Position numbers and translations under genes: made by a program
Shown here: positions 12,361 through 53,185 of the stretch, in pieces
Layout: the number at the start of each line of letters is the position of its first letter
Numbering within the stretch: the first letter of the stretch is position 1
Assembly (NCBI GenBank): GCA_020832235.1
Contig: JAFIEZ010000005.1
Location: forward strand, 87,374-151,373
Reading direction: 5' to 3'
DNA length: 64,000 nucleotides
From: Bacteroidota bacterium
Lineage (GTDB): Bacteria > Bacteroidota > Rhodothermia > Balneolales > HLUCCA01
The notes under the pieces: model-generated
What the model saw: the letters and a program-made list of their open reading frames with translations, nothing else
Told to the model about the DNA's origin: nothing
Databases searched by the model: none

Positions 12361-12404
12361 AAGACCAGCCTAAATGGTTTAGCGAAGATTCTGAATTTCT
12401 GAGC

Positions 12405-23620: not shown

Positions 23621-23658
23621 TAAAAAAAGCTAATCCATTGAACAGCAATGGATTAGCT
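23621..23658 (-). terminator. Rho-independent terminator downstream of tRNA-Pro (minus strand)
   Basis: Perfect 13-bp stem, agctaatccattg (23628-23640) with caatggattagct (23646-23658). The A-run at 23622-23628 reads as a U-tract on the minus strand. Confidence 0.75.
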
Positions 23659-23664
23659 TCTAAA

Positions 23665-23742
<78 letters not shown>

Positions 23743-29798: not shown

Positions 29799-29803
29799 AG
29801 TTA

Positions 29804-32800: not shown

Positions 32801-34342
32801 GGTCAGATTTTGCACGGATCGCTGCCGGCTTTCTTCAAAGAACGTCTGTAGAATTTGTGCCTCGTTGGCTGAAATCTCCCCCTTATTTTTGAAGAAAAAC
32901 AGATTCTGAAGGAAAACAGGTCCCATAACCGATCGCGCCTTAAACACAAGCGACAACGGATTCATGCTCAGCATATCCAGCAGATTCTTGCCCGGATCGC
33001 CTTCTCGGTGTATGCTTGGCACCCCGCGTACAGAGTCCTGCCAGACGGGATAAAGCTGGTGCAATATCTTCTTCAGCTGAATTTCATGAATCGAATCTTT
33101 GAACTGATCGCTAGGTACAGGAGGCGAAGATACAACGGGCATAACGGGTATCACACCATAAGGCTGATTGCCAATTCTGATAGCAGGCAATGGTCCCCGG
33201 CTTCTGACATTGTGCATGTAATGCTGCCGTAGCCAGGACATAAACGACGGATTTGCCGCCCTTCTGAACTCGGTAGCTTGCAACATCTGTGCAATATAAT
33301 ACTCCCAATTTCCGGCCCACATCGCGGTATTCATGTCGCGGGCGTTCGACTGTTCGGTCAATTCGGCGTTCTCCACATCGTGAAAGGGATAGTATGGATG
33401 ACGGACCTCCGTTGAGCCGGAAGGTAATCCAAAAGCGCGTGCCAGTTGTCCGGCATTCGAGTCAGCGCTCAATTCATCCGATGCTGAAGCGTTCAGGATT
33501 CGCTTAACGATATCCTCATAGTTGTGGTTGTGGAATCCATATCCCGAGGGAGCATCTTCGGTATTGTTGGTTGGCGTTCCCTGCTTTATGATGCCAAGTC
33601 CGGAGGTATAATGATGCGCCTCCATCAGTTGACGGAAGGATGTCGACCCGGTTTTGGTGTCGCTTTCGTGCCGAACTCCCAGAACAAACAACTGATCGAT
33701 GCCCTGTTCCACGTTCCCGAAATCAACGCCATACGGCACTTCCAGGGCCATACCAACACTCAGGGCCTCCTGATAATCTACCATCCATGTCAAGCCTTTA
33801 TCATCGCGTAGCGGATCGAAGCCATCGTCGACATCATCCACGGTTTCATCTTCACCAAGTACAGGACTCGGCCCTATAGCCAATTCGTTCGGGATTTTAT
33901 TACCGGTTACAGAAAACACCTTCTGTCCATTTCGGTAGCCTATGGCCGTCCAGTAATGCGGAAGTGCGTGCGTTACCGGCGCCTTGGTCCATGAATACTC
34001 CTTTTTGTTCCCGCTCAGTATATGCTCGCTCTGCTCCAGCACGCTTTTCGTAATCCATCCGGCCCTCTCAGGACCATAGCGATCGGCCAGGTCGGCCCAG
34101 GCACCCGGTAGTTTGTCGGAATCCGGGTCATCACGCAGCAGCTTTATAAAGACCAAACCGGCCTCAATTTCTTCCTCTGTAAGGTCGGTCTCGTGCGTGT
34201 TAACGTGGATGTCATCCGGCAGGACACGGATTTTGAGTTTATTATCCAAAAACCTGGTTTCAAGCCGTACCGGCAATAAAGCGATGGGCGTTTGAACGTT
34301 AAGCCGATCAAGATTGGGTATGTTGGAATGAATTTCTGGCAT
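29804..34342 (-). CDS. Giant-operon gene 4 (1512 aa), unknown function
   Basis: Uninterrupted 4.5-kb ORF starting 4 nt after the gene 3 stop. No signal peptide, TM segment or P-loop. Blocks 'ALLPVRLETRF', 'RGPLPAIRIGNQPYGVIPVMPV', 'SHRLDAWVTSIA', 'LGALLGYQFERGL'. Confidence 0.9.
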   Translation of the reverse strand: MPEIHSNIPNLDRLNVQTPIALLPVRLETRFLDNKLKIRVLPDDIHVNTHETDLTEEEIEAGLVFIKLLRDDPDSDKLPGAWADLADRYGPERAGWITKSVLEQSEHILSGNKKEYSWTKAPVTHALPHYWTAIGYRNGQKVFSVTGNKIPNELAIGPSPVLGEDETVDDVDDGFDPLRDDKGLTWMVDYQEALSVGMALEVPYGVDFGNVEQGIDQLFVLGVRHESDTKTGSTSFRQLMEAHHYTSGLGIIKQGTPTNNTEDAPSGYGFHNHNYEDIVKRILNASASDELSADSNAGQLARAFGLPSGSTEVRHPYYPFHDVENAELTEQSNARDMNTAMWAGNWEYYIAQMLQATEFRRAANPSFMSWLRQHYMHNVRSRGPLPAIRIGNQPYGVIPVMPVVSSPPVPSDQFKDSIHEIQLKKILHQLYPVWQDSVRGVPSIHREGDPGKNLLDMLSMNPLSLVFKARSVMGPVFLQNLFFFKNKGEISANEAQILQTFFEESRQRSVQNLTRAGLPDLSPFLARCLHAICDFSINEAIVSGKPPREDESLSDHYETNYIAWLSEQGHEELIADLRDNTLNFDHENPTPLLYHMLRHSLLWEYTNGIIDSEVGLPWLVENRPPEPELLITSGKYLNQTPLRALNSATADSFNSGRIDEVKDALRNLATKSTAELARLVAETIDLSSHRLDAWVTSIATAKLKQLRQQNSEGLYLGGYGYVENLAPRESRKSEGYIHAPSLNHAATAAVLYNGYLTYKDVEGKSPLSIDLSSARTQRALQLLEGVRQGQPLGALLGYQFERGLQEAALQRFIYPFRLAFPLLRKEAGPDETDGSPTESISARNVVHGLKLNKKWSTYRDNADGSADQREAAALDQLLQLLTQQDVDFTPGNASEKAKLAQLLLQLHDTIDALSDLLLSESVHQSVQGNQMRSVATLEALSAGEVTVPEIEVTKTPRTGVSNIYRVLSMFPGDGVLSWNADSPKAKAQPALESWAVNLLGSPDDYTVRIRFLDDDNQETGTADITLDDLNICALDLVFMGGMGTGEAPELVKRMIKTAQEQHAGTPSLQGARIAIEPEVTSNGKKSLAELQETLIVVQKLLANTRALEPSDVTLPEIADDLNVSYVNDTAIASIIDDFKAQYSHIRQSFIIKVSEVNAQFWDMLEIEPVTSDVYVHELPSAANLEALAKVYFEPGYPGQDADIDDLKSRLHRLSFFNIDDCVLAGDVVGEFIPKEQMLVLMYAVLKQAAKIIDEIDRLAGAGSEMTQQEVLTAQAKLLFGDQFIYVPKFTLEEDVADKLTEAFDSDRRKSLLGPNPYAVNTWRMRMSRIRKGFQRLNDLIFLKETDQQYGGDFQVSQISGKKATDQDLWIGLEKNAQPYPNGCVSLALHQPVSGNIDFTLPVCGLLIDEWVEVIPNKNETTAVAFHYDAPASRPAQAVLLAIPPDGGRTNEPWSDEYLITTIAETMALAKIRAVDSASLRHLGHFLPALYYAHNLDDDTTIKIDFKKDKRST

Positions 34343-34346
34343 TGGT

Positions 34347-37244: not shown

Positions 37245-40200
37245 GGCAAGAGTTCATTTTGGTCAACGACCTGGTGTGTGTTTTGGCCATCCATCTGGCG
37301 AAGTTTTTGTGCTGTTTCAGCGTAGCTGCCTGCCGTAAAGTCGACCGGCTGCATGGACTGCTTGTCGGTAATGGCATAGGCTTTTTCCTTCAGTTGAATT
37401 CCCATGGATGGAGCGTTGTACCGGGCGAATCCTGTTTTTGTGAGGCTTTTGCCAATAGCGGCGCGGTTGCGATTCATCACCGTCTGGAACTTAGGATGCA
37501 GGGTCAGTTTGAGTGCCAGCGGCACATCCTGCGGACCATCCACCACAATTTGCTCATATTCCAGCGTTTTCAGGGTGCCATCGGGGGCAACGGCGGTGCT
37601 GGACTGAATCTCGGCACCGGCGGTAAACGACTCAAACGAAGGACGTGAAAGCTTTTCCTTATCGGTTAGCGACAAAAACTGAGCAGGGGCAAAGTACTCT
37701 TTGGTTTCGCGGAAGGAGGCATCGTTGCTGTTGGACGTTATGCCCTCAATGCGGAATGTTCGGGCCCCGGTTGGCAGCGCATTCCCGAATTTCTCGATTT
37801 CCAGGTTAAAAGGAACAACCTGCTGCCGGAACTGAATAACGCCAAGAGGATGCACTTTTTCTGAACTTCCCTCTTTGAACATCACGAAGGCATCATCCTT
37901 TGATGGGAGCTCGGCATACCAGTTATCATCGGCTTCAAGCGCACTTTTGAGCAGAGGCCAGACATCGGCGCTCGGCAGTTCTTCCGGCTTCTTCTTGCCA
38001 ATGGTAAGATCAAAGGAAATGGATCCCTTGAACAGGAGAATTTTGATGGTGGCCTTGCCTTTTGCCCTCCATTGGTTGGGACCGGACAGGGTAAACGAAA
38101 CCGACAGTCCCATAATGTGCTTCGATTTTCTTCGCAAAGCCACCGATCCATACACATCTACGATGAAATAAAACGGCGAAAACTGAAAGAGAGCATCGAA
38201 ACCCAGGGTTCCGGTAACATTCCAGTTACCCGCTGCCGCGTATAGGTCGAGCCGGGCTCCGACCTGGGCTGTGTTCGAGGTCAGTGCCAGGTAGGCCTCC
38301 AGCCGCATTTTGGGATTGTTTCCCGAGGACAGGCTAATGGCCAGTCGATCAAGTTCCGGAAAAGCCGGCGGTCTATTAAATGCAGGATGCATGCCTCCCA
38401 ATGAGAGCGCAAACGCGGGTTTATTCCCGTATTTCATGCGCATTGCCATATCGCCCGAAAGCGTGTATAGCGTTAATCGGGAGTCGAACAGGGTTGCGTC
38501 AATGGATATGGTTTTCTCGCCAAAATCAATCACTCCCAGCATATCCAGGTTGATTTTCACCAACGCGGCCTGTTCGGTAGGTAAGGCCATCCGGATTCTG
38601 CCCAGAATAATCAGGCGCAGCGGTGATGGCATATCCAGCAGTACACCCAGCTCAATGGTCAATATTTTTGGTGTTCCCCAGGTGATGGAGGCCATGGGAC
38701 CAAAAACGTAGCGGCTTTGCTGCACCGGGAATATGGAGCCGAGGCTGCTGATGAGTGCCGGGGCGTTGTTCACCGGATCTTGCGGGAAGAGAATGCTGCC
38801 CAGACTGTTGGTGCGTAATCCTTCGCGCATCGCCTCTACCAGTACATTGCGGTGGGCGCCAAACAATCCGCCGACTTTTGAAAGACTAAAGCCAAAGCCC
38901 AGCTGGATGGATGGTGTGAATTCAGCGGTGATGATGAGCAGCAGTGAGTAGCCCTTGGATCCATCCGGCATTTTGGTGTTGAGAATCCCGATGGCGTTGA
39001 GTCCCACTTTGGCAAACTCGAGCTGCAGCACTCCCGCATATTCGCCCTTATCGGGATTAAAACTGAGGAAACCTCCACCGGTGACCGCTCCGGTATCTAT
39101 GGTTAAGCCAATGGCGGATGGGGGCCTGAACGAAAGGCTGAGTCCGTAGCTGTCGTTCGAGGACCCATGAAAATTGAGCACATTGAAGGTATCGGGGTCG
39201 GTTCGTCGGCCTATGCTTGCCTTTAGTCCCAGTCCGTCAACCGACATGGCCAGGGGACCGAGTTTGACATTTCCGGTGAGCAGGGCCTCAATATCCAGCT
39301 CCTGATTGGTAAATGCCCCCGATAATTGAATGGTGCTGACATTAAGCAGGCTCGAAGGGGAGCCGGTATTCAGGGAAATGGTCGTAGATAAGTCATTCCC
39401 ATTCTGAAAATACAGGCCGTTTTGGTCGTTGAAGCCGAATACGATATCAAAGGTATTCTGTAAGCCATTCTCCGGCAGTATCGTAGCGATGAAGCCGTCG
39501 GGATTGTCAGGTTGCAGCGAAAAAGCGACATCCTTCAACTGAAATCGAATATCGTAGGATTTATCGTCGTTTTCGACCTCGAGTTTGGCCCCGAGATCCA
39601 TCCCGTTAAACGTTATGTTTGCAAGTCCGGGCAGCGAAAACAGGGAATGACCGGGCGGAGGGGCGATGTACGTCAGGTTTGATGCGACCGACAGTTCTGT
39701 TGATATAGCCCCGTCGTTGAGGTTGACGGTTCTGAATCTGTTATCGGTAAACTCGATGGCGGCGTCCAGATCTGCTGAAAGAGATGATTGCAGGGCCCAT
39801 TTCAACGTGTTGGACAGGGTTCTTTCGAAATTTAAGCCCGCGTTGCCGAAGAAGTTTAGTCGGAGCCCGGACTGGTCGCTTTGATCGCTGTAGCCTGACA
39901 GAAACGCGCCGAGCTCGGCAGTCTGGGGCGGGGTGTTGTTCTGTAATAATGTAAGTCTGATGGCGTTGGATGTAAACTCGTCATCAATCAGTTGAATCAG
40001 TTCTACGTTTTCGGTCAGGTTGGTTAGTGCGGAATACAGCCTGATAATCAGGTAATCCGGATTGAAAGATGAAGAGTTCGTGTCAAAAATATTGCCCAGC
40101 TCTTGTAATGGATCCTGAATTATCTCGGCGATTCTGGAAAATTCGATTTTTTGTCTTTCCGAGCTGTCGGTTGTAATCAGCCCCGCGAAAACGGATGCGT

Positions 40201-40645
40201 GATACACGGATGGATGGTGCCTTTTAAGAAACTCTACCGCCAGGTAATCGAAGATTTTGCCAAGAATAACATCAGGCGGGTCGGCCTCGGGATCGGTGGT
40301 ATTCAGGTTGTTCTTTAGCTCGTATAAGTGATCCAGCGATTGTTCGATCGTTTGGATGAAATCACCGTTTCCGGACTCATGACTTGACCAAATATCACCT
40401 ATCAACTCTATGGAAGCGAGGGTTTGTTCAGCGATCAGGGTAGCATTTCCCATATTCACCTTGGCGGCCTCGAGAAAATTGAGCGTCAGGCTGAGTTTAT
40501 TGGTAGAGATGATTTCCGACTCACCCGTGGTAACATCATGCAAGGGTACTTCAAACGTAACAGGTGTGCTCCTTGCAATAGTGGTAATCGGCTCGAAAAA
40601 CTTCTCGAACTGTTCTAGAATGTTCTCAACGCTGGACTGACTCAT
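37241..40645 (-). CDS. Giant-operon gene 2 (1134 aa), unknown function; helical N-terminus and a large beta-rich module
   Basis: Uninterrupted 3.4-kb ORF starting 12 nt after the gene 1 stop. G/S/L-rich beta-like segments include 'GVLQLEFAKVGLNAIGIL', 'QLGFGFSLSKVGGLFG', 'LSLGGMHPAFNRPPAFPELDRLAISL' and 'TGTLGFDALFQFSPFYFIVDVYGSVAL'. From memory this resembles the DUF6603 type; that is unverified. Confidence 0.9.
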   Translation of the reverse strand: MSQSSVENILEQFEKFFEPITTIARSTPVTFEVPLHDVTTGESEIISTNKLSLTLNFLEAAKVNMGNATLIAEQTLASIELIGDIWSSHESGNGDFIQTIEQSLDHLYELKNNLNTTDPEADPPDVILGKIFDYLAVEFLKRHHPSVYHASVFAGLITTDSSERQKIEFSRIAEIIQDPLQELGNIFDTNSSSFNPDYLIIRLYSALTNLTENVELIQLIDDEFTSNAIRLTLLQNNTPPQTAELGAFLSGYSDQSDQSGLRLNFFGNAGLNFERTLSNTLKWALQSSLSADLDAAIEFTDNRFRTVNLNDGAISTELSVASNLTYIAPPPGHSLFSLPGLANITFNGMDLGAKLEVENDDKSYDIRFQLKDVAFSLQPDNPDGFIATILPENGLQNTFDIVFGFNDQNGLYFQNGNDLSTTISLNTGSPSSLLNVSTIQLSGAFTNQELDIEALLTGNVKLGPLAMSVDGLGLKASIGRRTDPDTFNVLNFHGSSNDSYGLSLSFRPPSAIGLTIDTGAVTGGGFLSFNPDKGEYAGVLQLEFAKVGLNAIGILNTKMPDGSKGYSLLLIITAEFTPSIQLGFGFSLSKVGGLFGAHRNVLVEAMREGLRTNSLGSILFPQDPVNNAPALISSLGSIFPVQQSRYVFGPMASITWGTPKILTIELGVLLDMPSPLRLIILGRIRMALPTEQAALVKINLDMLGVIDFGEKTISIDATLFDSRLTLYTLSGDMAMRMKYGNKPAFALSLGGMHPAFNRPPAFPELDRLAISLSSGNNPKMRLEAYLALTSNTAQVGARLDLYAAAGNWNVTGTLGFDALFQFSPFYFIVDVYGSVALRRKSKHIMGLSVSFTLSGPNQWRAKGKATIKILLFKGSISFDLTIGKKKPEELPSADVWPLLKSALEADDNWYAELPSKDDAFVMFKEGSSEKVHPLGVIQFRQQVVPFNLEIEKFGNALPTGARTFRIEGITSNSNDASFRETKEYFAPAQFLSLTDKEKLSRPSFESFTAGAEIQSSTAVAPDGTLKTLEYEQIVVDGPQDVPLALKLTLHPKFQTVMNRNRAAIGKSLTKTGFARYNAPSMGIQLKEKAYAITDKQSMQPVDFTAGSYAETAQKLRQMDGQNTHQVVDQNELLP

Positions 40646-40657
40646 TCGTGCTCTTGT

Positions 40658-42586
40658 TTAAGATTTATAGTATTCCAATAACTTTACCTGGTCGTCGCCT
40701 TCACCAATGACTGCAGTCATTTGATACCATTTTCCTACTAATTCATCCATTTCGTCATTATCTCGAGATATTGAGGTTTCTCCGTTTGAAAAGAGCCTTC
40801 TCATATCCTCTCTATCTAAAAAGTCCTCATGAGATCCACCATTCTCTATTGGTCCGACATCGAAATGCGTTGTGAAACTTCTCTGCAGCCATCGGTGATG
40901 AACGCCATCAATCTCTCTGAAAGGTTGAAATAAAACAGAGAAAGTGTATCTGCCTGTTTTCAATGAAAAGTTGAGCGGATTTAAAAATGTCTGCATCCTG
41001 TTTATTTGTTCTTCCAGTGCAATTTGTGGATCAGGATGATCAAAGTTGTAGGCTACATGGTCCGGCTCATTATTTTTTGTGGCAGCTATAATCCCTTTTG
41101 TTCCGAAGTAGCAATAGTCTGCAAACTGTTCATAAACACTTCGTTGACCTCGTGAGATCAAGGCACTTCCAATTAATGCAAGTGTTGAAATGATTAAGCT
41201 AGCAACCCAAAATTTTGGCCCGCCAGCTATGGAAAGAACTCGCATATAAGCTCCAAGACTGAAAGACATTACAGAGCCTGAAACGACAACTAAATTCCCG
41301 ATGATAACCATGTTTTCACCGTAAATCGCAGCGTAATGTATATTTCGGCCGGCAATTACAATGTCAATTACCACAATGATGAATCCAAGTCCTAAACCTA
41401 TTCTCTTTCCGTTTAACTTTCTGTTACTTCCAGTCTTTAGACGTTTCGTAACATTCTCAGTAATAACATTAACAGCGTTAACAGCCTTTTTTACATCTTC
41501 AGCACTAATATTTTCTTCATTATTAAAACTAGATGCAATTACTATGGTTGATTTAGCTCCTGCAATGATAGACAAGGCGTCAAAAGCAAGGCCCACCATA
41601 GTGCCTAACTTCGTTTCGAACTTAGATATCTCTTCGGCTAAATCTTCATCAGTTGTTGCATTGTTAAACGCTTCTATTGCACTTGCTGGGAGTACTAACA
41701 AGAATAATTCATTAACAATATCTTGTGCACTATCTGTCAGTCCATGGGTAAGATCATTCTCAACGGTTGACCGATACAGAAGCGACATCCATACAAATGG
41801 AATCACATCTTTAGCAAAATAACTCAACAGGGTGAATGCACTTACTACAGGTGCACTGTTTGTGGCGGGTATACTAGCCGCTATATCCCTTTGGAATTGC
41901 TCACCAAGTTCAGCATCAGCAAAATTAAGAACAGGAACTCCGTTAGGGTCTTCATCAACCTTTACGCCAATGTCACCAATTATTCCCTTAATTCTTGGAA
42001 TTTCAAGTAACTCTCCGGACAGTGTCGAGGTTTCCTTTAAGTAGTCAATTCCTGTTTCAGTATAACCCAAAGCACCAATTACGGTGTTGAGGAATTGGAT
42101 TTTGGCAACAGTATTAAGCTCGTCGAATGCTGAAAGCAAGTCACCAGTTTTAACATTAGTGATTATGCTGTTCGTGTAGAATTCCATCAGGTTTTCAATC
42201 GTAAACTCAAATTCTTCAAAAGGTTTGCTTTTACTTTGGTCTAGACTACTACGAAATTTGGATAAAATTTCGCTACCATCTTCACCACTTGACTCCAAGG
42301 CTTCCGTAAAACTTTTTATTGACTGGAGTAATCTGATTTTTTCTTTTCGATTAGAATCAGCATCAAAACGTAAGCGCCCTGAATTTACGTTAATGTGTTG
42401 TTCCATGTCGCTTTCAGAGGAATTGAAAACTTTTTTTAACAGCTCATCTTTAACACTTTTTTCGGGGTCATGACGTATTTCCAAGCCTGTATTCAAATAC
42501 TTGATGTGCAAATCAAGGATATACTCAATTTCAATTGCCATCAGCACAGTGGCTGACAAACGTTGTGATCCGGTTGTATTACTCAT
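40658..42586 (-). CDS. Giant-operon gene 1 (642 aa), unknown function, helical protein with a clustered TM/glycine-zipper-like region
   Basis: ORF visibly AT-richer than genes 2-5. Hydrophobic cluster at aa ~395-478 (nt 41153-41404): 'IGLGLGFIIVVIDIVIAG', 'MVIIGNLVVVSGSVMSFSLGAYM', 'FWVASLIISTLALIGSALI'. The start may instead be the internal ATG at 42541. Confidence 0.85.
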   Translation of the reverse strand: MSNTTGSQRLSATVLMAIEIEYILDLHIKYLNTGLEIRHDPEKSVKDELLKKVFNSSESDMEQHINVNSGRLRFDADSNRKEKIRLLQSIKSFTEALESSGEDGSEILSKFRSSLDQSKSKPFEEFEFTIENLMEFYTNSIITNVKTGDLLSAFDELNTVAKIQFLNTVIGALGYTETGIDYLKETSTLSGELLEIPRIKGIIGDIGVKVDEDPNGVPVLNFADAELGEQFQRDIAASIPATNSAPVVSAFTLLSYFAKDVIPFVWMSLLYRSTVENDLTHGLTDSAQDIVNELFLLVLPASAIEAFNNATTDEDLAEEISKFETKLGTMVGLAFDALSIIAGAKSTIVIASSFNNEENISAEDVKKAVNAVNVITENVTKRLKTGSNRKLNGKRIGLGLGFIIVVIDIVIAGRNIHYAAIYGENMVIIGNLVVVSGSVMSFSLGAYMRVLSIAGGPKFWVASLIISTLALIGSALISRGQRSVYEQFADYCYFGTKGIIAATKNNEPDHVAYNFDHPDPQIALEEQINRMQTFLNPLNFSLKTGRYTFSVLFQPFREIDGVHHRWLQRSFTTHFDVGPIENGGSHEDFLDREDMRRLFSNGETSISRDNDEMDELVGKWYQMTAVIGEGDDQVKLLEYYKS

Positions 42587-43107: not shown

Positions 43108-44049
43108 TTAAATTTTCATTTCGCCGGAGATGGCTGCCGGCTCACTAAGCTCCAATTCTTCAGCTGCGGACACATCCTTCTTGTGCTGCAGATACACCAG
43201 CGAAGCGCCGATGCCCAGGGGCAATAATCCTACGAGACCGACTATCGGGTAGATACTGTAATCCATATCCGCAAACATCGGGTCTGTTAGAGCGGGCGAG
43301 TTTTGCATCAACAGCATAAATATAGCCGAGCTGACCATGGCGCCGCCAAACCCCGCGATGGTCCACCCGAGAACGGCCTGCCAGCGCATCCATCCCCATA
43401 GAACGATGCTCAGAGTAAACAGCAAAATGGTGGGAATACTGATTACGATTATGACGATAGGTGGCGAGGTCACTTGAGACATGAATAGGAATACGATCAT
43501 GATAAGGAGAAACATGGCCGCAAAAAATGCCGATATCAAAGCGAAAATCTTGGCTATCACGCTTTTGCGTTTTTGGGCACTGCGGACGGATTTCATTCGA
43601 ATCTGAAGTTCGCTATCGGTGTACGTTCCCGCAAAAAAAGCGGTGGTAGTCGGCAGGAACAACAGATAAGCGAATAGCATGTAGATTATGATGCTAAACA
43701 GGATGAAAGGCAGCTGAATATCCATCACCAAAAAACTGGCTGCAAACGAAAGCGGGTAGTAGGCAAGAAAAAAGGTCCTGATCCAGGCTTGTTTGTTCAA
43801 AAGGAAATACCCTAATGAAAACATAACGATGCCGCTCACCAGGTTGAACATGATCATTCCGGGGATGTTGGCTCCGATATGTTGGAGGCTATTTGCGGTT
43901 TCAGGATTTACAAAAGTGAGGAGTCCGTAAATGGAGAAAATTGCGCTGACGATGAAATACCATCCCAGAATGGTAACAACGGTAGGGCGATTTTTATTTT
44001 CGAATAGTTTTTCGACGGAGGTGTCGTTGAAAATAGCAGTGATGTTCAT
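43108..44049 (-). CDS. Polytopic integral membrane protein, unknown function
   Basis: 313 aa with about 8 hydrophobic helices (for example 'VVTILGWYFIVSAIFSIYGLLTF', 'IFALISAFFAAMFLLIMIVFLFM'). No family recognised. Confidence 0.75.
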   Translation of the reverse strand: MNITAIFNDTSVEKLFENKNRPTVVTILGWYFIVSAIFSIYGLLTFVNPETANSLQHIGANIPGMIMFNLVSGIVMFSLGYFLLNKQAWIRTFFLAYYPLSFAASFLVMDIQLPFILFSIIIYMLFAYLLFLPTTTAFFAGTYTDSELQIRMKSVRSAQKRKSVIAKIFALISAFFAAMFLLIMIVFLFMSQVTSPPIVIIVISIPTILLFTLSIVLWGWMRWQAVLGWTIAGFGGAMVSSAIFMLLMQNSPALTDPMFADMDYSIYPIVGLVGLLPLGIGASLVYLQHKKDVSAAEELELSEPAAISGEMKI

Positions 44050-44200
44050 AGGTTTTCGGACTGGTTCTAGGCGACTAAGTTGAGTGAATATAAAGTTGTC
44101 AAGCTGTGTATAGGTTAAATATTAAGAAATTTAAATCTGGGAGATAAGCATGTCAGTTTGGCGAATATACACACGTTTTTTTGTCTTAAAACGTGCCATT

Positions 44201-44734
44201 TCATCTGATTCGCTTGTAATGCAGCTGCGTTAAACCGGTGTCGAACGACTTCGCGCTCACAAATTCGAGGCGTTGTTCGGGTCGGTTGTCTTTGAATAGT
44301 CTCGTTCCGTTGCCGAGCAAAATCGGAATAACGGAAATAATCAATTCGTCTATCAGGTCGTGCTGAAGCAGTTCATGAATGATTTCGGCGCCACCATCGC
44401 AATAGATGTCTTTTCCATCCTCTGACTTGAGTTGCTGGACCAATGCCTGCACGTCGCCTGAGTAGAACGTCGTTTTGCCAACGCTCGGCCTTTCCGTTCG
44501 GGTGATTACATAGACGTCGCGATGGCCGTTATCGTAATGTTCAGAACCGATTGCTTTAAGCACATAATCGTAGGTCTTTCTGCCGAGAATAATGGTGTCG
44601 ATGTTAGCCGTGAACTCGGCGTAGCCGTAATCTTCACCATCCTTCTCAACTAATTTCAGAAAGCTCAGGTCGTCATTCGGCTTGGCGATGTATCCGTCTA
44701 AACTAGACGCTATGAAAAGGGATAGTTTCCGCAT
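44201..44734 (-). CDS. Dihydrofolate-reductase-family protein (RibD C-terminal domain type)
   Basis: 'MRKLSLFIASSLDGYIAKPNDDLSFL...DTIILGRKTY...IYCDGGAEIIHELLQHDLIDELIISVIPILLGNGTRLF' is typical of RibD_C/YwjB-like reductases. The internal ATG at 44734 was chosen as the start. Confidence 0.8.
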   Translation of the reverse strand: MRKLSLFIASSLDGYIAKPNDDLSFLKLVEKDGEDYGYAEFTANIDTIILGRKTYDYVLKAIGSEHYDNGHRDVYVITRTERPSVGKTTFYSGDVQALVQQLKSEDGKDIYCDGGAEIIHELLQHDLIDELIISVIPILLGNGTRLFKDNRPEQRLEFVSAKSFDTGLTQLHYKRIR

Positions 44735-44759
44735 GGTTGGTTGATTTTTATACGAATTT

Positions 44760-46973
44760 CTATCCAATCACTCTTTCAAATACTCCAACAACTCTGAAAT
44801 TGACTATTCCTTCTTCTATAAGCACTATTTCTTTATACCTATCTTCACTTGATAGTGGCTTCAATATGATAGATGTATGCGCCCAATCATCGTTAGAATC
44901 GTTTTTTACACTTTGATACTCTTTAACTGTGTACCCAGAACCAAAATCTGCGTCATGAATATCAGAGGACTCTACTAAAACGATTTTACCATTTCTTGAA
45001 CCTCCTGAATAACGTCTGAATAAACAATATGAACCATTAGGAATACGCTTATTCATGGACTCCCCGACAACTTTACAGATAAAGTCCCCTTCACGTATTG
45101 ATATGCCCTCTGGTGCAGTGACCCAGTTTAGCTCCGAGTGAAGTTGATTTTCCGAAAAATTGCCCGCAGCAGCCTGAATGTCGACCAGTGGCACCGCATT
45201 TTCATAAGGTTTTACTTTATCGAAGTCCAATATTTCAAAGACGGATGCTTCTGGCTTTTGTTTCTTGGTTGTACTCTTAACAGATGCATCACTTTTTATA
45301 TGAGCGCTTAAATAGTCTCGTAGATCAGGATCGCATGCGTAAACCAAAGTTCCCTTAATGCCACGGTACATGATTGTTTTGTAGATGTTAACTATGTATT
45401 CTTTCAAGTGCTCATCGTTATCTATACCGGCACTTCCATTTCGATCATAGTAGTTTTGTCGGATGATTTCAATCCGATTTAAAGGTTTGTTGTACGTAAT
45501 CTCCTTGCCGAAGATAATTCCGGCGTAGTTTAAATCATATCCCTGCGTTGTGTGAATACAGCCTACTTCGAGCTCTGCGTTGGCTGAGTTAATCCAGTCG
45601 ATATTTACGTTGTTCCACTGTAATTCTTGTCCTTCAATTACAATGTCGTACTTACTTTTGTCCTCTTTTGAAATCCAGGACCAGGAATATCCGGCAATAA
45701 GACGACATAGCCCCATTTGCTTTTCTTTGGCTACGATTTCATTGTGAAATTCACGGAAAGAGGTAAACAGTCGGAAATCATAGTCATCAGGAATGGATAA
45801 ACCCTGTAAAGGTTGACATTTTAAGAGACGATCAACAAAGTTGATGTAGTCATTGCCTGCAGAAACCCGCATTTGCGAGGTAAGTTTAATGGGCTTAATC
45901 GATTGGCTTTTTATTGCTTGAAAACGTTCTTTTGGGATGTCAGATGGCTTTATGGATTGTGCTTCATCATAAAAGAATATCTGCTGTTTACTGTTCATTA
46001 AAATCCAATCAAGCTGGGTGCCCTCGTTTCCTAAGCCCATTAAACGGTTAGTAGCGTCAAATGATCCATAATTAGGAATGTTCTTTCTACGAGCAAGGCG
46101 ATGCGCTTCATCCACGATGAGAATGTCATACTTCTTTTTTACAACATCGGATGGACCTATGACCATATTGGCACTTAGACCCCCTATCGCTCGGAAAACA
46201 GTTTTTAGACTTCCTCGAAGTGAAGTCATGGGTACTACCAACCCAATATTCACATCTTTAAATCGCTGTTGAAACGTCTCTAATAAACGATACTCCTGCA
46301 GACGATACCCCTCAAGGTCTTCAATTTCATCCGGTGCCGGAAGCGGCGAATGCAAAAGCTTCATCAAATATGTTGCAAGAATGGTTTTTCCGGTTCCTGC
46401 ACTTCCTTCAACAAAGAGATTTGGTTGCTGACGGCTGTTTAATGCGTTAATAATCTCCATCACGGAAGATCGTTGGTCATCTGACAGCGCTTTGTAAGGT
46501 GAGTATTTGAATAAATCGGAGTTCTCGATTTCTTCTATAGACTTGCTAACTAACTTTTCACTTCTTAGTCGGTTCCAGATTTCCTCAAATAATTCCCGAT
46601 ATAGTGGTTTTTCGTAGTAGTTGTGATGGGTTAAGCCCCCATTTCCGTTTTGGAGGATGTATGTATTCTCGGCAGAGAGATATTGGATAAGCTGAGATTC
46701 AATGTCTAATGTTGCTGATTTATTAAAACGGTCAGAACCAATCAAGGTAATGGTATTCAATACCGTGCGGTCATCATTAGCGAAGTGATTCTTTATGCGA
46801 TTGTAAGCATTGGTGGTTTCCCCAACATACGCCAATTTACGAGAGTCATTCTTAATGATGTAAACCAGAGGCCACTGACTCTTGACCCATTTATTTTCTG
46901 CAATTTCAGAGAATGCATTTTTATTGAAAGGGTACCTCGCTAAATCAACAACGATGTTCGTACCGAGGCTCAT
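44760..46973 (-). CDS. GIY-YIG nuclease / DUF2075-type P-loop NTPase / LexA-like S24 peptidase fusion protein
   Basis: N-terminal GIY-YIG-like 'LVYIIKNDSRKLAYVGETTNAYNRIKNH...LDIESQLI'. Walker A 'VEGSAGTGKTILATYL'. Walker B 'YDILIVDEAHRL'. C-terminal 'VPLVDIQAAAGNF...VVGESMNKRIPNGSYCLF...GKIVLVES...YTVKEY', which is LexA/UmuD-like. Confidence 0.8.
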   Translation of the reverse strand: MSLGTNIVVDLARYPFNKNAFSEIAENKWVKSQWPLVYIIKNDSRKLAYVGETTNAYNRIKNHFANDDRTVLNTITLIGSDRFNKSATLDIESQLIQYLSAENTYILQNGNGGLTHHNYYEKPLYRELFEEIWNRLRSEKLVSKSIEEIENSDLFKYSPYKALSDDQRSSVMEIINALNSRQQPNLFVEGSAGTGKTILATYLMKLLHSPLPAPDEIEDLEGYRLQEYRLLETFQQRFKDVNIGLVVPMTSLRGSLKTVFRAIGGLSANMVIGPSDVVKKKYDILIVDEAHRLARRKNIPNYGSFDATNRLMGLGNEGTQLDWILMNSKQQIFFYDEAQSIKPSDIPKERFQAIKSQSIKPIKLTSQMRVSAGNDYINFVDRLLKCQPLQGLSIPDDYDFRLFTSFREFHNEIVAKEKQMGLCRLIAGYSWSWISKEDKSKYDIVIEGQELQWNNVNIDWINSANAELEVGCIHTTQGYDLNYAGIIFGKEITYNKPLNRIEIIRQNYYDRNGSAGIDNDEHLKEYIVNIYKTIMYRGIKGTLVYACDPDLRDYLSAHIKSDASVKSTTKKQKPEASVFEILDFDKVKPYENAVPLVDIQAAAGNFSENQLHSELNWVTAPEGISIREGDFICKVVGESMNKRIPNGSYCLFRRYSGGSRNGKIVLVESSDIHDADFGSGYTVKEYQSVKNDSNDDWAHTSIILKPLSSEDRYKEIVLIEEGIVNFRVVGVFERVIG

Positions 46974-47299
46974 AGCTCATCATATTTCTTGGCTGTTCCT
47001 TTCGCTTTTTCGATGGGGTATTTCTTCCCGTTTCGCTCCACTTTCTCAGCGACGATATCATAGACATCGAACTGATACTTATCTGCTAGTAAAAACGCAT
47101 AAGCAAATACATCAGCCAACTCCTCCTTTACTTTATTAACATTGGCATCCTCGGCATTTTTCCATAGATAAGCCTCTAATAGTTCACCAGATTCAATGTT
47201 CAATGCAATTGCCAAATCCTTCGGGTTGTGAAATTGTGCCCAATCTCTCTGGTCTCTGAATTCAATCAATTTTTCCGTTAGCTTTTTGATATCGCTCAT
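46970..47299 (-). CDS. MazG-like nucleoside triphosphate pyrophosphohydrolase (small all-alpha NTP-PPase)
   Basis: 109 aa. 'FRDQRDWAQFHNPKDLAIALNIESGELLEAYLWK...EELADVFAYAFLLADKYQFD...KVERNGKKYP'. The stop overlaps the start of the DUF2075 gene (ATGA). Confidence 0.85.
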   Translation of the reverse strand: MSDIKKLTEKLIEFRDQRDWAQFHNPKDLAIALNIESGELLEAYLWKNAEDANVNKVKEELADVFAYAFLLADKYQFDVYDIVAEKVERNGKKYPIEKAKGTAKKYDEL

Positions 47300-47532
47300 A
47301 CTATTAATGATTCAGGCATTTATGTCTATTAGTGTCCTAAACTTAAAGGGGATTAAAGCATTACCCGTGAAATACCAATCTATTTCATAAATAGCAAAGT
47401 ATGAAAATGGAGTGTTTCGATATCATAGGATAGCGATTTATTGTTTCATGCTTAAGTATTATGGCAAAAAACGGTAACATCCAGAACTAGATTGGATATA
47501 TCTATTCAAGATGTCAGCTTGTACTATGGTTT

Positions 47533-49071
47533 CTAATGACGTAAAAGAAGTTGACGACCTTTGTCGGTCAGACGGTACTTTTGGAGCCGACTTTTTGGTT
47601 TATCGGGAATCGTCATCTCTACGAGCTCGAATTCCAAGGCTGGCTGCAAGTATCGATCGCGAAAGTTAGCTTGGCTTTGAAGATTCATGGCAATTTGTAA
47701 TTGTGTCCGTGACACGGTCTGATCAGACAAATACTTGATTAATGCCATTACTTCATCTGTTACTTCGAGTGGCACATATGGGGTGACTTCACCTGTGACT
47801 TCACCTGTGACTCCTCTATAACTCTTCGAAGCGGGTTCGTACCTATCTGGTGAGGGCGTCCATTTTCTCCAAATAGTTGTAATCCAGAATCCACCTTCGA
47901 TTCGGATTTCAGGTTCGCGAAGCCCTGCCTCATTACATCGCGTTATCATATCACGGATTCCCGTGCCCATACGCTCAATATACTTGGTGAGATATAGCGG
48001 TTCGGCAATCAAAGGGTTATGCGGTACAGAACCGTGGGGCTGTCGAAGCATTTCCACAGTGAGACTTGGAGGCAGGGAACCCGGATTCCATACTTCCAAT
48101 CGGTCTTTAAAGAGCATCACCTGTACACTGCCATTGCTGGTGTAATCACGGTGACAAATAGCATTGACGATGGCTTCCGAAACTACTTCTTGTGGAATTT
48201 CATAGGAAGTTGGTACCTGAACTCCTTGAGAACGGTCACCGGTCCACAAGTCAATTTTGGACAGTACAAAGTCCTTTGACTGATCAATTAGGTCAAATAA
48301 TGTCCCTTTATACACCTGGTAGGACGGTATTGGCTTTTCTATATCGAAGCCATGAAACCTAGCGCATTTTACCTCCGAGCTGATTACAAAATGCTGTGGA
48401 GACTTGCCAAACAATAGTATGGCAGCATGCGTTGGACGAGATTTGTCAAGTAAGTTAAGATGTGTGAGTACCTCAATGGGCTGTGTCCCATCCGCAAGTG
48501 GGAAACTGCGTGCATTCCGCGCATGGATTAGAAACCGGTTGATTTTGTCGTTATCAAGATCATCTATACTTGCATTACGGCACCAAGTGGCATCAAACGG
48601 AGTATAACGGATGATTTCGCGTTCCTCTAGGATTCTAATCAGGCTGGCATAAACTGCAGAAACAAGTTCTTCAGATGCATTAAACCTTCGGCGAATTAAT
48701 GATGCGCCCGCTTCGTCAATCAAGGTTGACATTTTCGGGTGTCTGCCGGCATTTCCAGACCCTTTTACAAATATCAAGCGAGTCTTACCCAGCCGTGTAG
48801 CCTCCCGAAATTCGTGATGTGTTGGAGAGAGTCCGTTTTCATCTTGCCACCCATATTCATTACCGAATATGCCCAGATAGAGGTCACAACGTGCGACTTC
48901 ATCGAGGTATGTCGTATCAGCGCGTTTATCTGCAGCTGGGACATCCTCAAACAAAAAAACATCGAAAAATTTACGTAGCAGAGCATCTCCAATTAGAAAA
49001 TCCCGTATAGCGCGACGTTCGTCGGCTAGTTCTTTTTGCACACTACTGATAAATATGCGAAGTACGGTCAT
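47533..49071 (-). CDS. DUF4062 / AlbA_2 (Schlafen-like) / HATPase_c_4 / wHTH protein (RecG-like 'putative DNA-binding' family)
   Basis: N-terminal 'RIFISSVQKELADERRAIRDFL...CDLYLGIFGNEYG' is DUF4062-like. 'PTHAAILLFGKSPQHF' is AlbA_2-like. 'EAIVNAICHRDYTSNGSVQVMLFKDRLEVWNPGSLP' is HATPase_c_4-like. The C-terminal tail is wHTH-like. Confidence 0.8.
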   Translation of the reverse strand: MTVLRIFISSVQKELADERRAIRDFLIGDALLRKFFDVFLFEDVPAADKRADTTYLDEVARCDLYLGIFGNEYGWQDENGLSPTHHEFREATRLGKTRLIFVKGSGNAGRHPKMSTLIDEAGASLIRRRFNASEELVSAVYASLIRILEEREIIRYTPFDATWCRNASIDDLDNDKINRFLIHARNARSFPLADGTQPIEVLTHLNLLDKSRPTHAAILLFGKSPQHFVISSEVKCARFHGFDIEKPIPSYQVYKGTLFDLIDQSKDFVLSKIDLWTGDRSQGVQVPTSYEIPQEVVSEAIVNAICHRDYTSNGSVQVMLFKDRLEVWNPGSLPPSLTVEMLRQPHGSVPHNPLIAEPLYLTKYIERMGTGIRDMITRCNEAGLREPEIRIEGGFWITTIWRKWTPSPDRYEPASKSYRGVTGEVTGEVTPYVPLEVTDEVMALIKYLSDQTVSRTQLQIAMNLQSQANFRDRYLQPALEFELVEMTIPDKPKSRLQKYRLTDKGRQLLLRH

Positions 49072-50418: not shown

Positions 50419-52872
50419 TTAATACTCCAGCTCCGCGCCGAACATGTCCACAATCATGCGCACTTTCGGATCGGCCTGCTGAAGCTTCTTAAATTGGGTA
50501 TACGGATCGTTTTTGTTTTCACTTGCCTGCTGCTGGCGCACACTCCCCTCGATATACAACGAGGTTCGAAGCACTTTTTCGAAACAGGTGGTGAGCTGCC
50601 GCTCGTTTTGCTTGATGAGCTGCAGCGTGAGTTCATCCTGACATTCCAGATGAACCATTTTCTCGCGAATATCGATCAGTTTGGTGCGACTAATGCTGTA
50701 AAACACCAACTGAGGGCACTCGCGCTGTACATATTCGAGCCACCGCGGCCAGGCTTCCTGCAATTCGTGAAGCATAATCGTGCGGTTTTCGAGGACGTCT
50801 TCGATCGGCTCATCATCGGGAAAGTACTCGTTGCCGGAATCGTCGGTGTTGTCGGCGTCGAGGGTGTCCTGAGTGTCGAGGTTGTTTTGACCGTCGAGCG
50901 CGTTTTGACCGTCGATAGCGTTTTGCGCATCGCCGTGGGACTGATTACCGTGGCCGTCTTGTGGGTCGCGGGAGGCTTGTCCGTCGAGGTTACCTTTGCT
51001 ATCGAGGTTACCTTTGCTATCGCGGTTGCCTTTTTCATCGAGATTTCCTTGTCCATCGAGGGGGGGGGGTTCGTGAACGCCTCCCGGGAAGCCGGTGCCC
51101 TCGGCAGCGTTCTCTGCCTCGCCGGAGGTGGTGTTGCCAGCGGAATTCGCGGTATTTACTGAGCTTCCATCATTAGGGCGGGATGCCGACGTTGATGCCG
51201 ATGCTGCTTCGCCATTGTCGATAGTGCGCTTTTGAACCCCGGTGTTCATGGGACGGTCCAGTGAAGCGGCGCCTGCGTTTGTCGGAGTGCCGGGCTTCTT
51301 TTTGATGGCGGACTTGCTTAGATAGCTGTTGAGCAATGATCCGGGTGCGCCATTGGTGGAGGCGGGCTTGCCGGAAGTCGCTGCGCCGGATGCAGGTTTG
51401 GGCGAAGTGGGCACGGCGGATTCAGGCTTTGCTGAAGCAGCTGCGCCGGAAGCAGAATTAGATGGCGCAGGTTTCGCCGCCGCGCTAGAACCGGGCTTGC
51501 CGGAAGTCGCTGCGCTGGAATTCGCCTTCGCCGCTGCCCCGGAAACTTCGCCGGACTTTTTAGGCAGTGGCTTCAGAAAGGAGGGCGCTTTGTCGGAGTT
51601 GGCTGCATCATCAGGACCAGTACTCCAGTCTGCTGCAGAACTTCGTGTCGGGGCCGGACTTCCCGAAGCCACCGGGCTCCCCGAACGCTCCGAAGCACTA
51701 TCAGCGTCCACATCCCCCGAAAAAGCGGCATTTTGGCCGCCTACCCCTGACTTATGGAGTTTTTTTTTAAGGTCGCGTATCTCTGATAGCAACTGCTGAA
51801 GTCCCTCTGAGCGATCCATCGTGGTCAGCTTCAGAATGGCAATCTCCAGCTGAATCCTGGGCTGGTGCGCATCCCTCACCTTATACTGTGTTTCACTGGC
51901 CATATGCATCATACGCAGCAAATCCTGATCGGTGAATCCATCCGCAGCGCGTTTCAGGCGGGACTTCTCCTCATCGGTGGCTTCCACCAGTCGAACACTG
52001 CCCGCATCCTTAGCCAGATACATATTGCGCAGATGCTCGGTCAGCGCGCCGAGGAATTCCTGAATATCGTGACCATCGAACAGTAGGGTATCGATGATTT
52101 CCATCGCCCGCCGCGGATCGTGGTTCTTCGCACAGTCGATAAGCTCGAACAAACGCTCGTTATTGACCACATTCAGCGCATCCAGCAGGATGTCGTGCTC
52201 GATGTTGTTGCCGCAGAACGCAATGGCCTGGTCCATAATACTGAGCGCATCGCGCAGCGCCCCATCGGCCTTGCGCGCAATGACGTGCAGCGACGCTTCA
52301 TCAATCGTTATGCCTTCTTCCTTGCAGATAAAACGGAGGCGGTCTACGATCTCGCTGACTTTAATCCTGCGGAAATCGAAGCGTTGCACCCGCGAGAGCA
52401 CCGTCGGCAGGACCTTGTGCGGCTCGGTGGTGGCAAAAATGAATTTAACGTACTCGGGCGGCTCTTCGAGGGTTTTGAGCAGGGCATTAAACGCCTGCTT
52501 GCTGAGCATGTGCACCTCATCAATGATGTACACTTTATAGGTGCCGTTCTGAGGGGGCACCCGAACGCCGTCGCGCAGACTGCGAACGTCGTCAACGCCG
52601 CTGTTGGAAGCTGCATCAATTTCGATAATGTCGAGGGTACGTCCGAGTTCTTCCCCGTCTACATCCATACTCACGCCGTTGATCATTCGGGCAACCACAC
52701 GGGCCATGGTGGTCTTGCCCACACCACGCGGTCCGCAGAACAGATAGGCGTGCGAAATCCGGTTTTGAGCTATGGCATTGCGCAGCGTACTAATGACGTG
52801 ATCCTGCGAAACGACATCGTCAAACGAGCGCGGACGGTATTTCCGGGTGAGTACTTTGTAGGAATCTGACAT
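50419..52872 (-). CDS. dnaX: DNA polymerase III subunit gamma/tau
   Basis: 'YRPRSFDDVVSQDHVISTL...YLFCGPRGVGKTTMARV' Walker A, 'IIDEVHML' Walker B, 'VLSRVQRF' sensor block, a long low-complexity linker, and a conserved C-terminal domain. The start at 52872 (MSDSYKVL) is preferred over the track start at 53025. Confidence 0.9.
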   Translation of the reverse strand: MSDSYKVLTRKYRPRSFDDVVSQDHVISTLRNAIAQNRISHAYLFCGPRGVGKTTMARVVARMINGVSMDVDGEELGRTLDIIEIDAASNSGVDDVRSLRDGVRVPPQNGTYKVYIIDEVHMLSKQAFNALLKTLEEPPEYVKFIFATTEPHKVLPTVLSRVQRFDFRRIKVSEIVDRLRFICKEEGITIDEASLHVIARKADGALRDALSIMDQAIAFCGNNIEHDILLDALNVVNNERLFELIDCAKNHDPRRAMEIIDTLLFDGHDIQEFLGALTEHLRNMYLAKDAGSVRLVEATDEEKSRLKRAADGFTDQDLLRMMHMASETQYKVRDAHQPRIQLEIAILKLTTMDRSEGLQQLLSEIRDLKKKLHKSGVGGQNAAFSGDVDADSASERSGSPVASGSPAPTRSSAADWSTGPDDAANSDKAPSFLKPLPKKSGEVSGAAAKANSSAATSGKPGSSAAAKPAPSNSASGAAASAKPESAVPTSPKPASGAATSGKPASTNGAPGSLLNSYLSKSAIKKKPGTPTNAGAASLDRPMNTGVQKRTIDNGEAASASTSASRPNDGSSVNTANSAGNTTSGEAENAAEGTGFPGGVHEPPPLDGQGNLDEKGNRDSKGNLDSKGNLDGQASRDPQDGHGNQSHGDAQNAIDGQNALDGQNNLDTQDTLDADNTDDSGNEYFPDDEPIEDVLENRTIMLHELQEAWPRWLEYVQRECPQLVFYSISRTKLIDIREKMVHLECQDELTLQLIKQNERQLTTCFEKVLRTSLYIEGSVRQQQASENKNDPYTQFKKLQQADPKVRMIVDMFGAELEY
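50842..51060 (-). repeat. dnaX: 18-bp (hexapeptide) periodic array in the dnaX linker
   Basis: About 12 units such as atcgaggttacctttgct (two perfect adjacent copies around 50999-51034). They encode 'LDGQGN LDEKGN RDSKGN LDSKGN LDGQAS ... IDGQNA LDGQNA LDGQNN LDTQDT'. The array abuts a G10 run (C10 on the coding strand) at 51060-51069. Confidence 0.8.
51760..51768 (-). other. dnaX: A9 homopolymer in dnaX: candidate programmed frameshift or transcriptional-slippage site producing a gamma-like product
   Basis: The coding strand reads CTT AAA AAA AAA CTC CAT AAG at about codon 369-371. The -1 frame gives ACT CCA TAA (stop after 2 codons). The +1 frame gives TCC ATA AGT CAG GGG TAG (stop after 5 codons). 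Confidence 0.5.
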
Positions 52873-53185
52873 GCTCCGAAGGTACGGAAATTCGTGCAAT
52901 GTTTGGGCAGTCAAGATGGGAATTTCAATCAAATTTCTGGTTCGGCGCGTTTGAAAATCCTGCAAATATGTGGGGCGATGCGGCTGGAATTTCATCCTAC
53001 GTTTGGACTTCTTTCGATGCAACAACGGTCACGTTTTGGCCAGATTAGATGGGCATTTCATCCAACGTTTACCCCCTCAACATGAACAATATAATTTGTA
53101 CTATTGTAGAATCATGGGCTTTCTGCCCGGTATGCACGTATTTAACTACTATATAATGCTAACGGAACTCCTTCTTTTTTTCGCG

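Follow-up and report, generated by a model that had tools for sequence, protein, structure and literature searches.

A MazG-like pyrophosphohydrolase gene coupled to a GIY-YIG/DUF2075 nuclease-helicase with a predicted LexA-type self-cleavage domain: a candidate conflict module in a Bacteroidota genome

The closest described systems are Nhi of Staphylococcus epidermidis (SERP2475), a validated anti-phage protein in which a PD-(D/E)XK nuclease is joined to DUF2075 (Bari et al., bioRxiv 10.1101/776245), and Nhi-like (Bacillus cereus SG141), also validated as anti-phage and marked 'v' (Millman et al., 2022, bioRxiv 10.1101/2022.05.11.491447). Supplementary file 11 of the latter study also lists 'Pyrophosphatase + DUF2075' candidates, SG192 from Bacillus firmus LK28 and SG193 from B. 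thuringiensis Lr3/2. Fusion of DUF2075 to GIY-YIG and the presence of DUF2075 NTPases beside DUF3427 enzymes have been described (Lutz et al., 2019; PMC6765204). MazG-type domains have been predicted to be defensive, with none validated (PMC13092281, a 2026 paper), and in some PUA-HAD systems MazG replaces the calcineurin-like effector that degrades deoxynucleoside triphosphates (dNTPs) (10.64898/2026.01.15.699771). Here we analyse a gene pair in a 64,000-nucleotide stretch of a Bacteroidota genome (contig JAFIEZ010000005.1, hereafter the window), in which a small MazG-like gene overlaps the start of a gene for a 737-aa protein with GIY-YIG, DUF2075 and S24 domains. The two genes are translationally coupled and conserved as a unit, and the S24 domain of the large protein is, judged by profile, fold model and residue conservation, of the LexA type with its predicted self-cleavage machinery intact.

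Database searches with the large protein yield over 6500 homologues, and the three-domain form is frequent in Bacteroidota. When a single genome of each species was scanned, at least 574 loci were obtained, 80 of which (47–80% identity) were taken for comparison. Of these 80 loci, 78 have a MazG-like open reading frame (ORF) immediately upstream of the large gene in the same orientation, and the other two are interrupted by contig ends. The 4-nt overlap recurs in 71 of the 78 loci that have the MazG gene and is therefore not a chance feature. An earlier, sequence-only reading of this DNA had reported the ATGA overlap of the MazG-like stop with the start of the DUF2075 fusion (46970–46973), which we could read in both ORFs, and the co-occurrence survey that it called for revealed a conserved linkage. 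MazG also accompanies copies of the large protein at 42% identity. Since the flanks are otherwise unrelated between genomes while the two genes stay together, the pair appears to move as a two-gene cassette.

The RibD_C/DHFR-like gene is located 25 nt downstream on the same strand, as the same reading had stated, but its suggested membership of the unit did not hold: a homologue is found in none of the 80 related loci. Present in the near-identical contigs L081 and L082 but restricted to this genome lineage, it is a local passenger and not part of the module. The sole recurrent neighbour is a protein of ∼650 aa with N-terminal TPRs, encoded directly upstream of MazG in about 18–22 loci and absent from the window, which may be an optional third component. 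Examples of it are L003:3684-5669 and L030:1305-3227. Its gene often touches the MazG gene, and the protein has an unassigned C-terminus of 400 aa with the conserved tail ...IPEML.QL.LPYD.EYK... In L001, L027, and L074 just a 3′ remnant of the gene is left.

The MazG-like protein matches PF12643 with 66.9 bits (E 1.9e-18; Pfam cut-off 27 bits), and the solved structures closest to it are an archaeal pyrophosphatase (4qgp, 3e-17) and DCTPP1/RS21-C6 (2.8e-15). Across 83 partner sequences, the Bacillus ones among them, the metal-site residues E36, E39, E42, E60, and D63 (EXXE...EXXD) show conservation of 95% or more, and two Trp residues are conserved as well. By these criteria it is a DCTPP1-type all-α dNTP pyrophosphohydrolase with a predicted intact site. 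A dCTP deaminase or dGTPase (HD) effector was not found by Pfam or PADLOC in either protein of the pair. With a mean pairwise identity of 68%, against 62% for the core of the large protein, MazG is the best-conserved component. Pairwise identities of the core correlate with those of S24 (0.68) and of MazG (0.11), the latter value being uninformative as a test of co-evolution because MazG is uniformly conserved.

The GIY-YIG match of the large protein covers residues 36–84 (32.5 bits; cut-off 22.6 bits). Residues Y38, Y49, G51, R59, H63, E92, and N109 of the GIY-YIG constellation are invariant in all 79 full-length homologues, and their spacing agrees with that of I-TevI and UvrC. The helicase is matched by SLFN-g3_helicase (formerly DUF2075) at residues 186–548 (E 3.3e-56), and K196, D288, E289, Q339, R369, and R537 are invariant across the same 79 homologues. 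An AlphaFold2 (AF2) model of the 737-aa protein has a mean predicted local distance difference test (pLDDT) score of 82, and the top Foldseek matches of the helicase core are Upf1, RecD2, Dna2, SLFN14, Dda, and Pif1. The linker between helicase and S24 is weakly conserved in homologue alignments and has pLDDT values below 50 at residues 566–577. A profile of the whole protein gave nothing at E ≤ 0.01 against PDB sequences, and a domain for reading modified bases was not found in the 737 aa. The effector is predicted to carry intact active sites of both a GIY-YIG nuclease and a superfamily 1B (SF1B) helicase. The motifs quoted in the sequence-only reading, VYIIKN...AYVGETTNAYNRIKNH (residues 37–63), GSAGTGKT (190–197), and IVDEAH (286–291), are all in place, and its assignment of MazG-like, GIY-YIG, DUF2075 NTPase, and LexA-like domains is backed by Pfam matches throughout.

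What that reading overlooked in the LexA-like domain it had correctly named is an intact self-cleavage site with a Ser-Lys dyad. The Peptidase_S24 match covers residues 596–690 (28.4 bits; cut-off 23.3 bits), and a profile of the S24 part matches LexA 3k2z, with 'AAG' aligned to the Ala-Gly site of LexA and 'GESM' to its catalytic serine. Foldseek places the model of the domain closest to the cleavable form of LexA (1jhe, E 1.2e-6, TMt 0.73), and other matches are lambda CI bound to RecA (8gmu), a hyper-cleavable CI fragment (2ho0), and UmuD (1umu). A603, S639, and K684 are kept in 79 of 79 homologues and G604 in 74. The A603-G604 site stands 35 residues ahead of S639 (GESM); the corresponding spacing is about 34–35 in LexA, 35 in UmuD, and 37 in CI. 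Around the predicted cleavage site (residues 601–611) the AF2 pLDDT falls below 50, as expected for a region that is mobile. The helix-turn-helix (HTH) DNA-binding domain of the LexA and CI repressors was not found, residues 1–595 being nuclease and helicase. Taken together, the LexA profile, the fold, the dyad, and the A-G site indicate that the protein has all it would need for self-cleavage into a nuclease-helicase of 603 aa and a tail of 134 aa. We found no description of an S24 fusion to GIY-YIG-DUF2075 in the literature on DUF2075, MazG, Schlafen, or S24 in defence. The positions of all features are given in Table 1.

Table 1. Coordinates in the window of the gene pair, its predicted domains and motifs, and its flanks.
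Feature	Position	Strand	Remarks
MazG-like gene	46970-47299	minus	109 aa, ORF read directly
Large fusion gene, GIY-YIG / SF1B DUF2075 helicase / S24	44760-46973	minus	737 aa
ATGA stop/start overlap, translational coupling	46970-46973	minus	large-gene ATG 46973-46971, MazG TGA 46972-46970
GIY-YIG nuclease domain (predicted)	46644-46868	minus	residues about 36-110; Pfam PF01541, 32.5 bits
DUF2075/Schlafen-group-3 SF1B helicase core (predicted)	45330-46418	minus	residues 186-548; Pfam PF09848, E 3.3e-56
Walker A	46383-46406	minus	GSAGTGKT, residues 190-197
DEAH (Walker B)	46101-46112	minus	within IVDEAH, residues 286-291
Helicase-S24 linker, low confidence	45189-45329	minus	residues 549-595
S24 domain, LexA/UmuD/lambda CI type (predicted)	44763-45188	minus	residues 596-737; Pfam PF00717, 28.4 bits
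Predicted scissile bond A603/G604	codons 45165-45167 and 45162-45164	minus	alignment to LexA A-G site
Ser639 and Lys684 of S24 dyad	45057-45059 and 44922-44924	minus	S24 domain
233-bp intergenic region upstream of pair, presumed promoter	47300-47532	minus	
RibD_C/DHFR-like reductase	ATG 44734, stop 44201	minus	starts 25 nt past large-gene stop

A scan of 44000–47700 for sigma-70-like promoters and terminators gave sites no commoner than in shuffled sequence, and no Bacteroidetes SOS box is recognisable in the intergenic region upstream of the pair. The sole CTAA-N5-TTAG of the window, at 12370, lies upstream of a sulfate symporter gene far from the pair and was dismissed as a chance match.

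Relatives at 80% identity that lack S24 are 573 aa long, end cleanly after the helicase, and keep the overlapping MazG gene. As most relatives are 550–600 aa at the level of 50% clusters, the S24-bearing form is a subclade. Megaplasmids of the Bacillus cereus group encode an S24-less GIY-YIG-DUF2075 protein of 560 aa, 34% identical to that of the window, and, ahead of it, a 'nucleotide pyrophosphohydrolase' that shares 50% identity with the window MazG. A Lactiplantibacillus plasmid likewise carries MazG together with an S24-less GIY-YIG-DUF2075 gene, and some more distant DUF2075 genes are without a pyrophosphatase partner.

The S24 subfamily of the window is also found (45–62% identical) at the C-terminus of DUF8090-DUF3427, which forms the tail of type IV restriction-like enzymes with PLD and superfamily 2 (SF2) helicase domains. 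A gene for a 131-aa NUDIX protein (MutT/NudG-like) overlaps the start of the PLD-helicase gene in all three S24-fused loci with enough context. Two non-homologous nuclease-helicases thus have the same S24 tail and, in the same position, a small dNTP pyrophosphatase of differing fold, which argues for a functional connection of the nuclease-helicase with both the pyrophosphatase activity and the S24 switch. Loci with NUDIX and PLD-SF2 helicase-DUF8090-DUF3427-S24 are L100:2498-6246, L103:3360-7194, and L104:3080-6918, where the PLD-helicase-S24 gene is called as 2–4 pieces and may be either frameshifted or genuinely split.

Stand-alone S24 proteins of 191–192 aa were considered as a family of their own and rejected. 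In Flavobacterium humidisoli (CP096829.1; L089:6055-8576) an intact MazG gene is followed by 1.6 kb without a called gene and then by a 191-aa S24-only ORF (P0210), annotated as 'S24 family peptidase'. Given its position 1.6 kb past MazG with no called gene between them, P0210 is a remnant of a decayed large gene. Most other S24 proteins of 191–192 aa come from contigs of roughly 1 kb, and many of the ∼192-aa 'S24 peptidases' in the databases are probably fragments of decayed large genes. Relatives were found in 3 of 2.9 million viral contigs, with four additional weak matches to phage records, and this scarcity indicates that the large gene is not typically a phage gene.

The pair of the window is located in a low-GC stretch at 40–48 kb (GC 0.41 vs. 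∼0.50 in the flanks). The genomic context was surveyed through 130 immediate neighbours, and the family figures that follow are drawn from among the matches listed. Type IV restriction enzymes lie directly upstream of the pair in three loci (L011, L015:2746-5646, and L018); the enzyme is a 966-aa PLD-ResIII-Helicase_C-DUF3427 protein without S24 that matches the PADLOC model mREase_IV with E 1.7e-224. Other neighbours of defence type are HNH/PtuB-like proteins, PbeA, three PDC candidates (PDC-S05, PDC-S23, and PDC-S41), Fic proteins, a second DUF2075 protein, SMC-like ATPases, and an MTES_1575 restriction endonuclease-helicase. The Bacillus plasmid copies have HNH endonucleases, a zeta toxin, and a large DEAD-box helicase as neighbours, and across the Bacillus and Lactiplantibacillus plasmids the pair adjoins HNH, zeta-toxin, and McrC genes. 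On the B. thuringiensis plasmid pIS56-233 a gene for a MutT/NudG-like NUDIX '(deoxy)nucleoside triphosphate pyrophosphohydrolase' (L090:959-1342) and a zeta-toxin gene are found 3 kb upstream of the HNH-MazG-DUF2075 cluster, which places a second dNTP pyrophosphatase nearby. The pair behaves like a mobile accessory module, as judged from its low GC, its unrelated flanks, and its restriction, HNH, PLD, PbeA, and PDC neighbours, and its defence-island signal is real yet moderate.

Our leading reading, to which we would give somewhat less than an even chance, is that the pair constitutes a co-translated conflict module, most likely anti-phage or anti-plasmid, in which an Nhi-like nuclease-helicase gated by S24 acts with a partner that sanitises or depletes dNTPs. 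In the manner of LexA, CI, and UmuD, the S24 domain would keep the enzyme latent, either dimerised or auto-inhibited. Filaments of RecA on single-stranded DNA (ssDNA), formed when phages replicate or DNA breaks, would promote self-cleavage at A603/G604 and so free the 603-aa nuclease-helicase. The freed enzyme could then load on ssDNA, translocate 5′→3′, and cut replicating foreign DNA as Nhi does. The MazG partner would hydrolyse non-canonical dNTPs (e.g., 5-modified dCTP) or canonical ones, and might in this way either deny the phage its modified precursors or keep nucleotides recycled from degraded DNA out of the host DNA. Because of the recurrent link to modification-dependent DUF3427 enzymes, we consider it more likely that the partner removes modified dCTP-type precursors or sanitises recycled nucleotides than that it depletes the pool in bulk.

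Several points weigh against this reading. Many loci are placed among ordinary housekeeping and metabolic genes, and G604 is replaced in five of the 79 homologues (Ser in three, Thr in two), which may cleave poorly or not at all. We infer self-cleavage, the dependence on RecA, and the substrates of both the nuclease and MazG. SG192, the only tested relative of the pair, is marked 'x', which we read as no defence seen, and SG193 carries the remark 'Cloning failed' (bioRxiv 10.1101/2022.05.11.491447). PADLOC v2 gives only partial matches for the large protein, to Nhi (39.6 bits) and AbiO (35.4 bits), with the Nhi model PDLC02372 aligned to residues 280–385 alone rather than over the full length, and it has no match for the MazG-like protein. 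The sequence-only reading had recognised no named system here, and PADLOC v2 indeed names none, but the 'Pyrophosphatase + DUF2075' combination had already been listed and Nhi and Nhi-like were known. Its proposal of a candidate defence module keeps its force as regards the coupled conserved unit, the domains, and the accessory context, but loses RibD_C as a member, and nucleotide depletion is one possible role of MazG among others.

The main rival is a host DNA-damage repair or tolerance module of the SOS type, in which RecA-triggered cleavage would activate a structure-specific nuclease-helicase at stalled chromosomal forks while MazG clears damaged dNTPs in the manner of MutT or DCTPP1. The S24 domain is a hallmark of SOS-controlled proteins, GIY-YIG is the nuclease fold of UvrC and Slx1, and the MazG and NUDIX partners resemble the house-cleaning enzymes DCTPP1 and MutT/NudG. 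The location of some loci among housekeeping genes would suit such a role, recR is found 2 kb away in the window, and a RecA-dependent SOS response exists in Bacteroidetes (PMC8565304). A repair function is nevertheless hard to reconcile with the patchy distribution and unrelated flanks of the pair, its low-GC island location, the plasmid copies beside HNH, zeta-toxin, and McrC genes, the type IV restriction enzymes as neighbours, and the pseudogene decay in F. humidisoli. It is also at odds with the missing SOS box and with the absence of the pair from the text on the published SOS regulon (PMC8565304). We therefore regard this explanation as unlikely, though it is the one to be taken most seriously.

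The large protein might instead be chiefly a sensor or activator, with MazG draining dCTP or dNTPs upon infection so that phage DNA synthesis stops. Such a role, proposed at the outset, is just one of those open to MazG. The 109-aa protein is catalytically intact by its predicted site and is the best-conserved component, and in the analogous module a NUDIX dNTPase occupies the corresponding position. MazG is, however, of the DCTPP1 house-cleaning type and has no regulatory domain. Enzymes of this type prefer modified dCTP and act weakly on canonical dNTPs. The nuclease site of the large protein is fully conserved, which a pure sensor would not need, and the verified Nhi-like protein works without any pyrophosphatase. 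Depletion of dNTPs is an established defence strategy, to which the MazG substitution in some PUA-HAD systems lends precedent (10.64898/2026.01.15.699771). On balance we think it improbable that pool depletion is the main effector. A selfish addiction pair, in which the nuclease-helicase is a toxin neutralised by the small overlapping protein and stabilises the mobile DNA that carries it, would fit the strict stop/start coupling with the small gene first, the plasmid carriage, and the cloning failure of SG193, but is very unlikely in view of the invariant MazG active site, which speaks for an enzymatic rather than merely binding function, the substitution of MazG by a non-homologous NUDIX protein, difficult to square with a specific protein antitoxin, and the partnerless state of some DUF2075 relatives.

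If the conflict-module reading is extended, the LexA-type domain could be a portable 'safety pin', triggered by RecA-ssDNA, that is shared by two or more unrelated classes of effector, GIY-YIG-DUF2075 and PLD-SF2-DUF3427 among them. Both classes would be obligately combined with a dNTP pyrophosphatase, MazG or NUDIX, whose task would be either to clear modified dNTPs or to avert autoimmunity caused by recycled nucleotides. Such a device would be the prokaryotic counterpart of the activation of SLFN11 by ssDNA where forks are under stress; we offer this as a speculation with a rather low chance of being right. Should the S24 tail be triggered by RecA, the DNA-damage signal, the oldest in bacteria, would activate an immune nuclease directly and bypass the transcription step. 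This would be a new infection-sensing route for defence systems and would explain why the same domain occurs on two unrelated nuclease-helicase families; a trigger of the DNA-damage type is undescribed for the DUF2075 nuclease-helicase class. The recurrence of non-homologous dNTP pyrophosphatases (MazG and NUDIX) suggests that DNA degradation is coupled to nucleotide-pool control in a way not yet explored. As the DUF2075 helicase is a bacterial relative of the human Schlafen helicase domain, its mechanism may inform SLFN11 biology.

Other genes of the window deserve mention. The gene upstream of the pair, across a 233-bp gap (47533–49071, minus strand), encodes a protein with DUF4062, HATPase_c_4 (GHKL), and a Fic-like_C winged helix that matches pAgo-associated Aga/SIR2-PNTD models of PADLOC (E 8.8e-13). 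It seems to be a defence-type gene in its own right, perhaps of the Schlafen/AlbA-GHKL kind, and just one of the 80 loci has a homologue. On the other side, adjoining the pair, an operon of five large co-directional genes (28092–42586, minus strand; 568, 1512, 965, 1134, and 642 aa) has stops and starts that overlap or abut and almost no Pfam match save DUF6603 in the 1134-aa protein (E 6.8e-135). Its last gene falls in the low-GC stretch. Between this operon and the RibD_C gene, a multi-pass membrane protein of 313 aa (43108–44049, minus strand) belongs to no Pfam family and has a weak PADLOC match to a 2TM 'Effector' model (E 6.7e-4). The DnaX homologue at 50419–53025 (minus strand, 868 aa) has a very long Ser/Ala/Gly-rich low-complexity insert with short GNLD-type repeats, which is unusual for a clamp-loader subunit. 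A DUF285 repeat protein (22336–23742, minus strand; E 2.2e-143) is encoded beside the only tRNA gene of the window (tRNA-Pro, 23668–23742), and GC also falls to 0.41 around it.

Compared with known systems, the helicase resembles that of human SLFN11, SLFN5, SLFN13, and SLFN14 in sharing Pfam PF09848, and SLFN14 is among its structural matches, but the Schlafen RNase domain is not present and the nuclease is a DNA-type GIY-YIG. A parallel to the proposed RecA-ssDNA trigger is offered by SLFN11, for which a response to ssDNA and replication stress has been described (PMC13056530). The S24 domain shares with LexA, UmuD, and lambda CI (MEROPS S24) the fold, the Ser-Lys dyad, and an Ala-Gly site ∼35 residues upstream in a flexible loop; unlike theirs, it is the tail of an enzyme and not of a repressor or polymerase subunit, and it has no HTH. 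The window MazG has the EXXE...EXXD metal site, the two conserved Trp residues, and the C-terminal KYP...KY tail of DCTPP1/RS21-C6 (E 2.8e-15), yet differs from DCTPP1 in being obligately coupled to a nuclease-helicase gene. DUF3427 type IV enzymes (the McaZI group) carry the same S24 subfamily and are upstream neighbours in three loci, although they belong to a different protein family. Like SG192 and SG193, the window has a small MazG-like gene beside a DUF2075 gene on the same strand, and the SG193 pyrophosphatase is 49% identical to the window MazG. The DUF2075 proteins of these two candidates, however, are about 620–640 aa long with a PD-(D/E)XK-like N-terminus and no S24, in contrast to GIY-YIG and S24 here, and the gene order of SG193 is reversed. 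With Nhi and Nhi-like the window protein shares the layout of a nuclease at the N-terminus joined to a DUF2075 SF1B helicase, and with Nhi the helicase neighbours Upf1, Dna2, and Dda. Its nuclease is GIY-YIG instead of PD-(D/E)XK, and it has both an S24 domain and a pyrophosphatase partner, whereas Nhi and Nhi-like are single genes with neither. As far as sequence comparison goes, the pair is thus an Nhi-like DUF2075 nuclease-helicase of the already flagged, unvalidated pyrophosphatase-paired type, to which it adds a previously undescribed part, the putative LexA-type switch.

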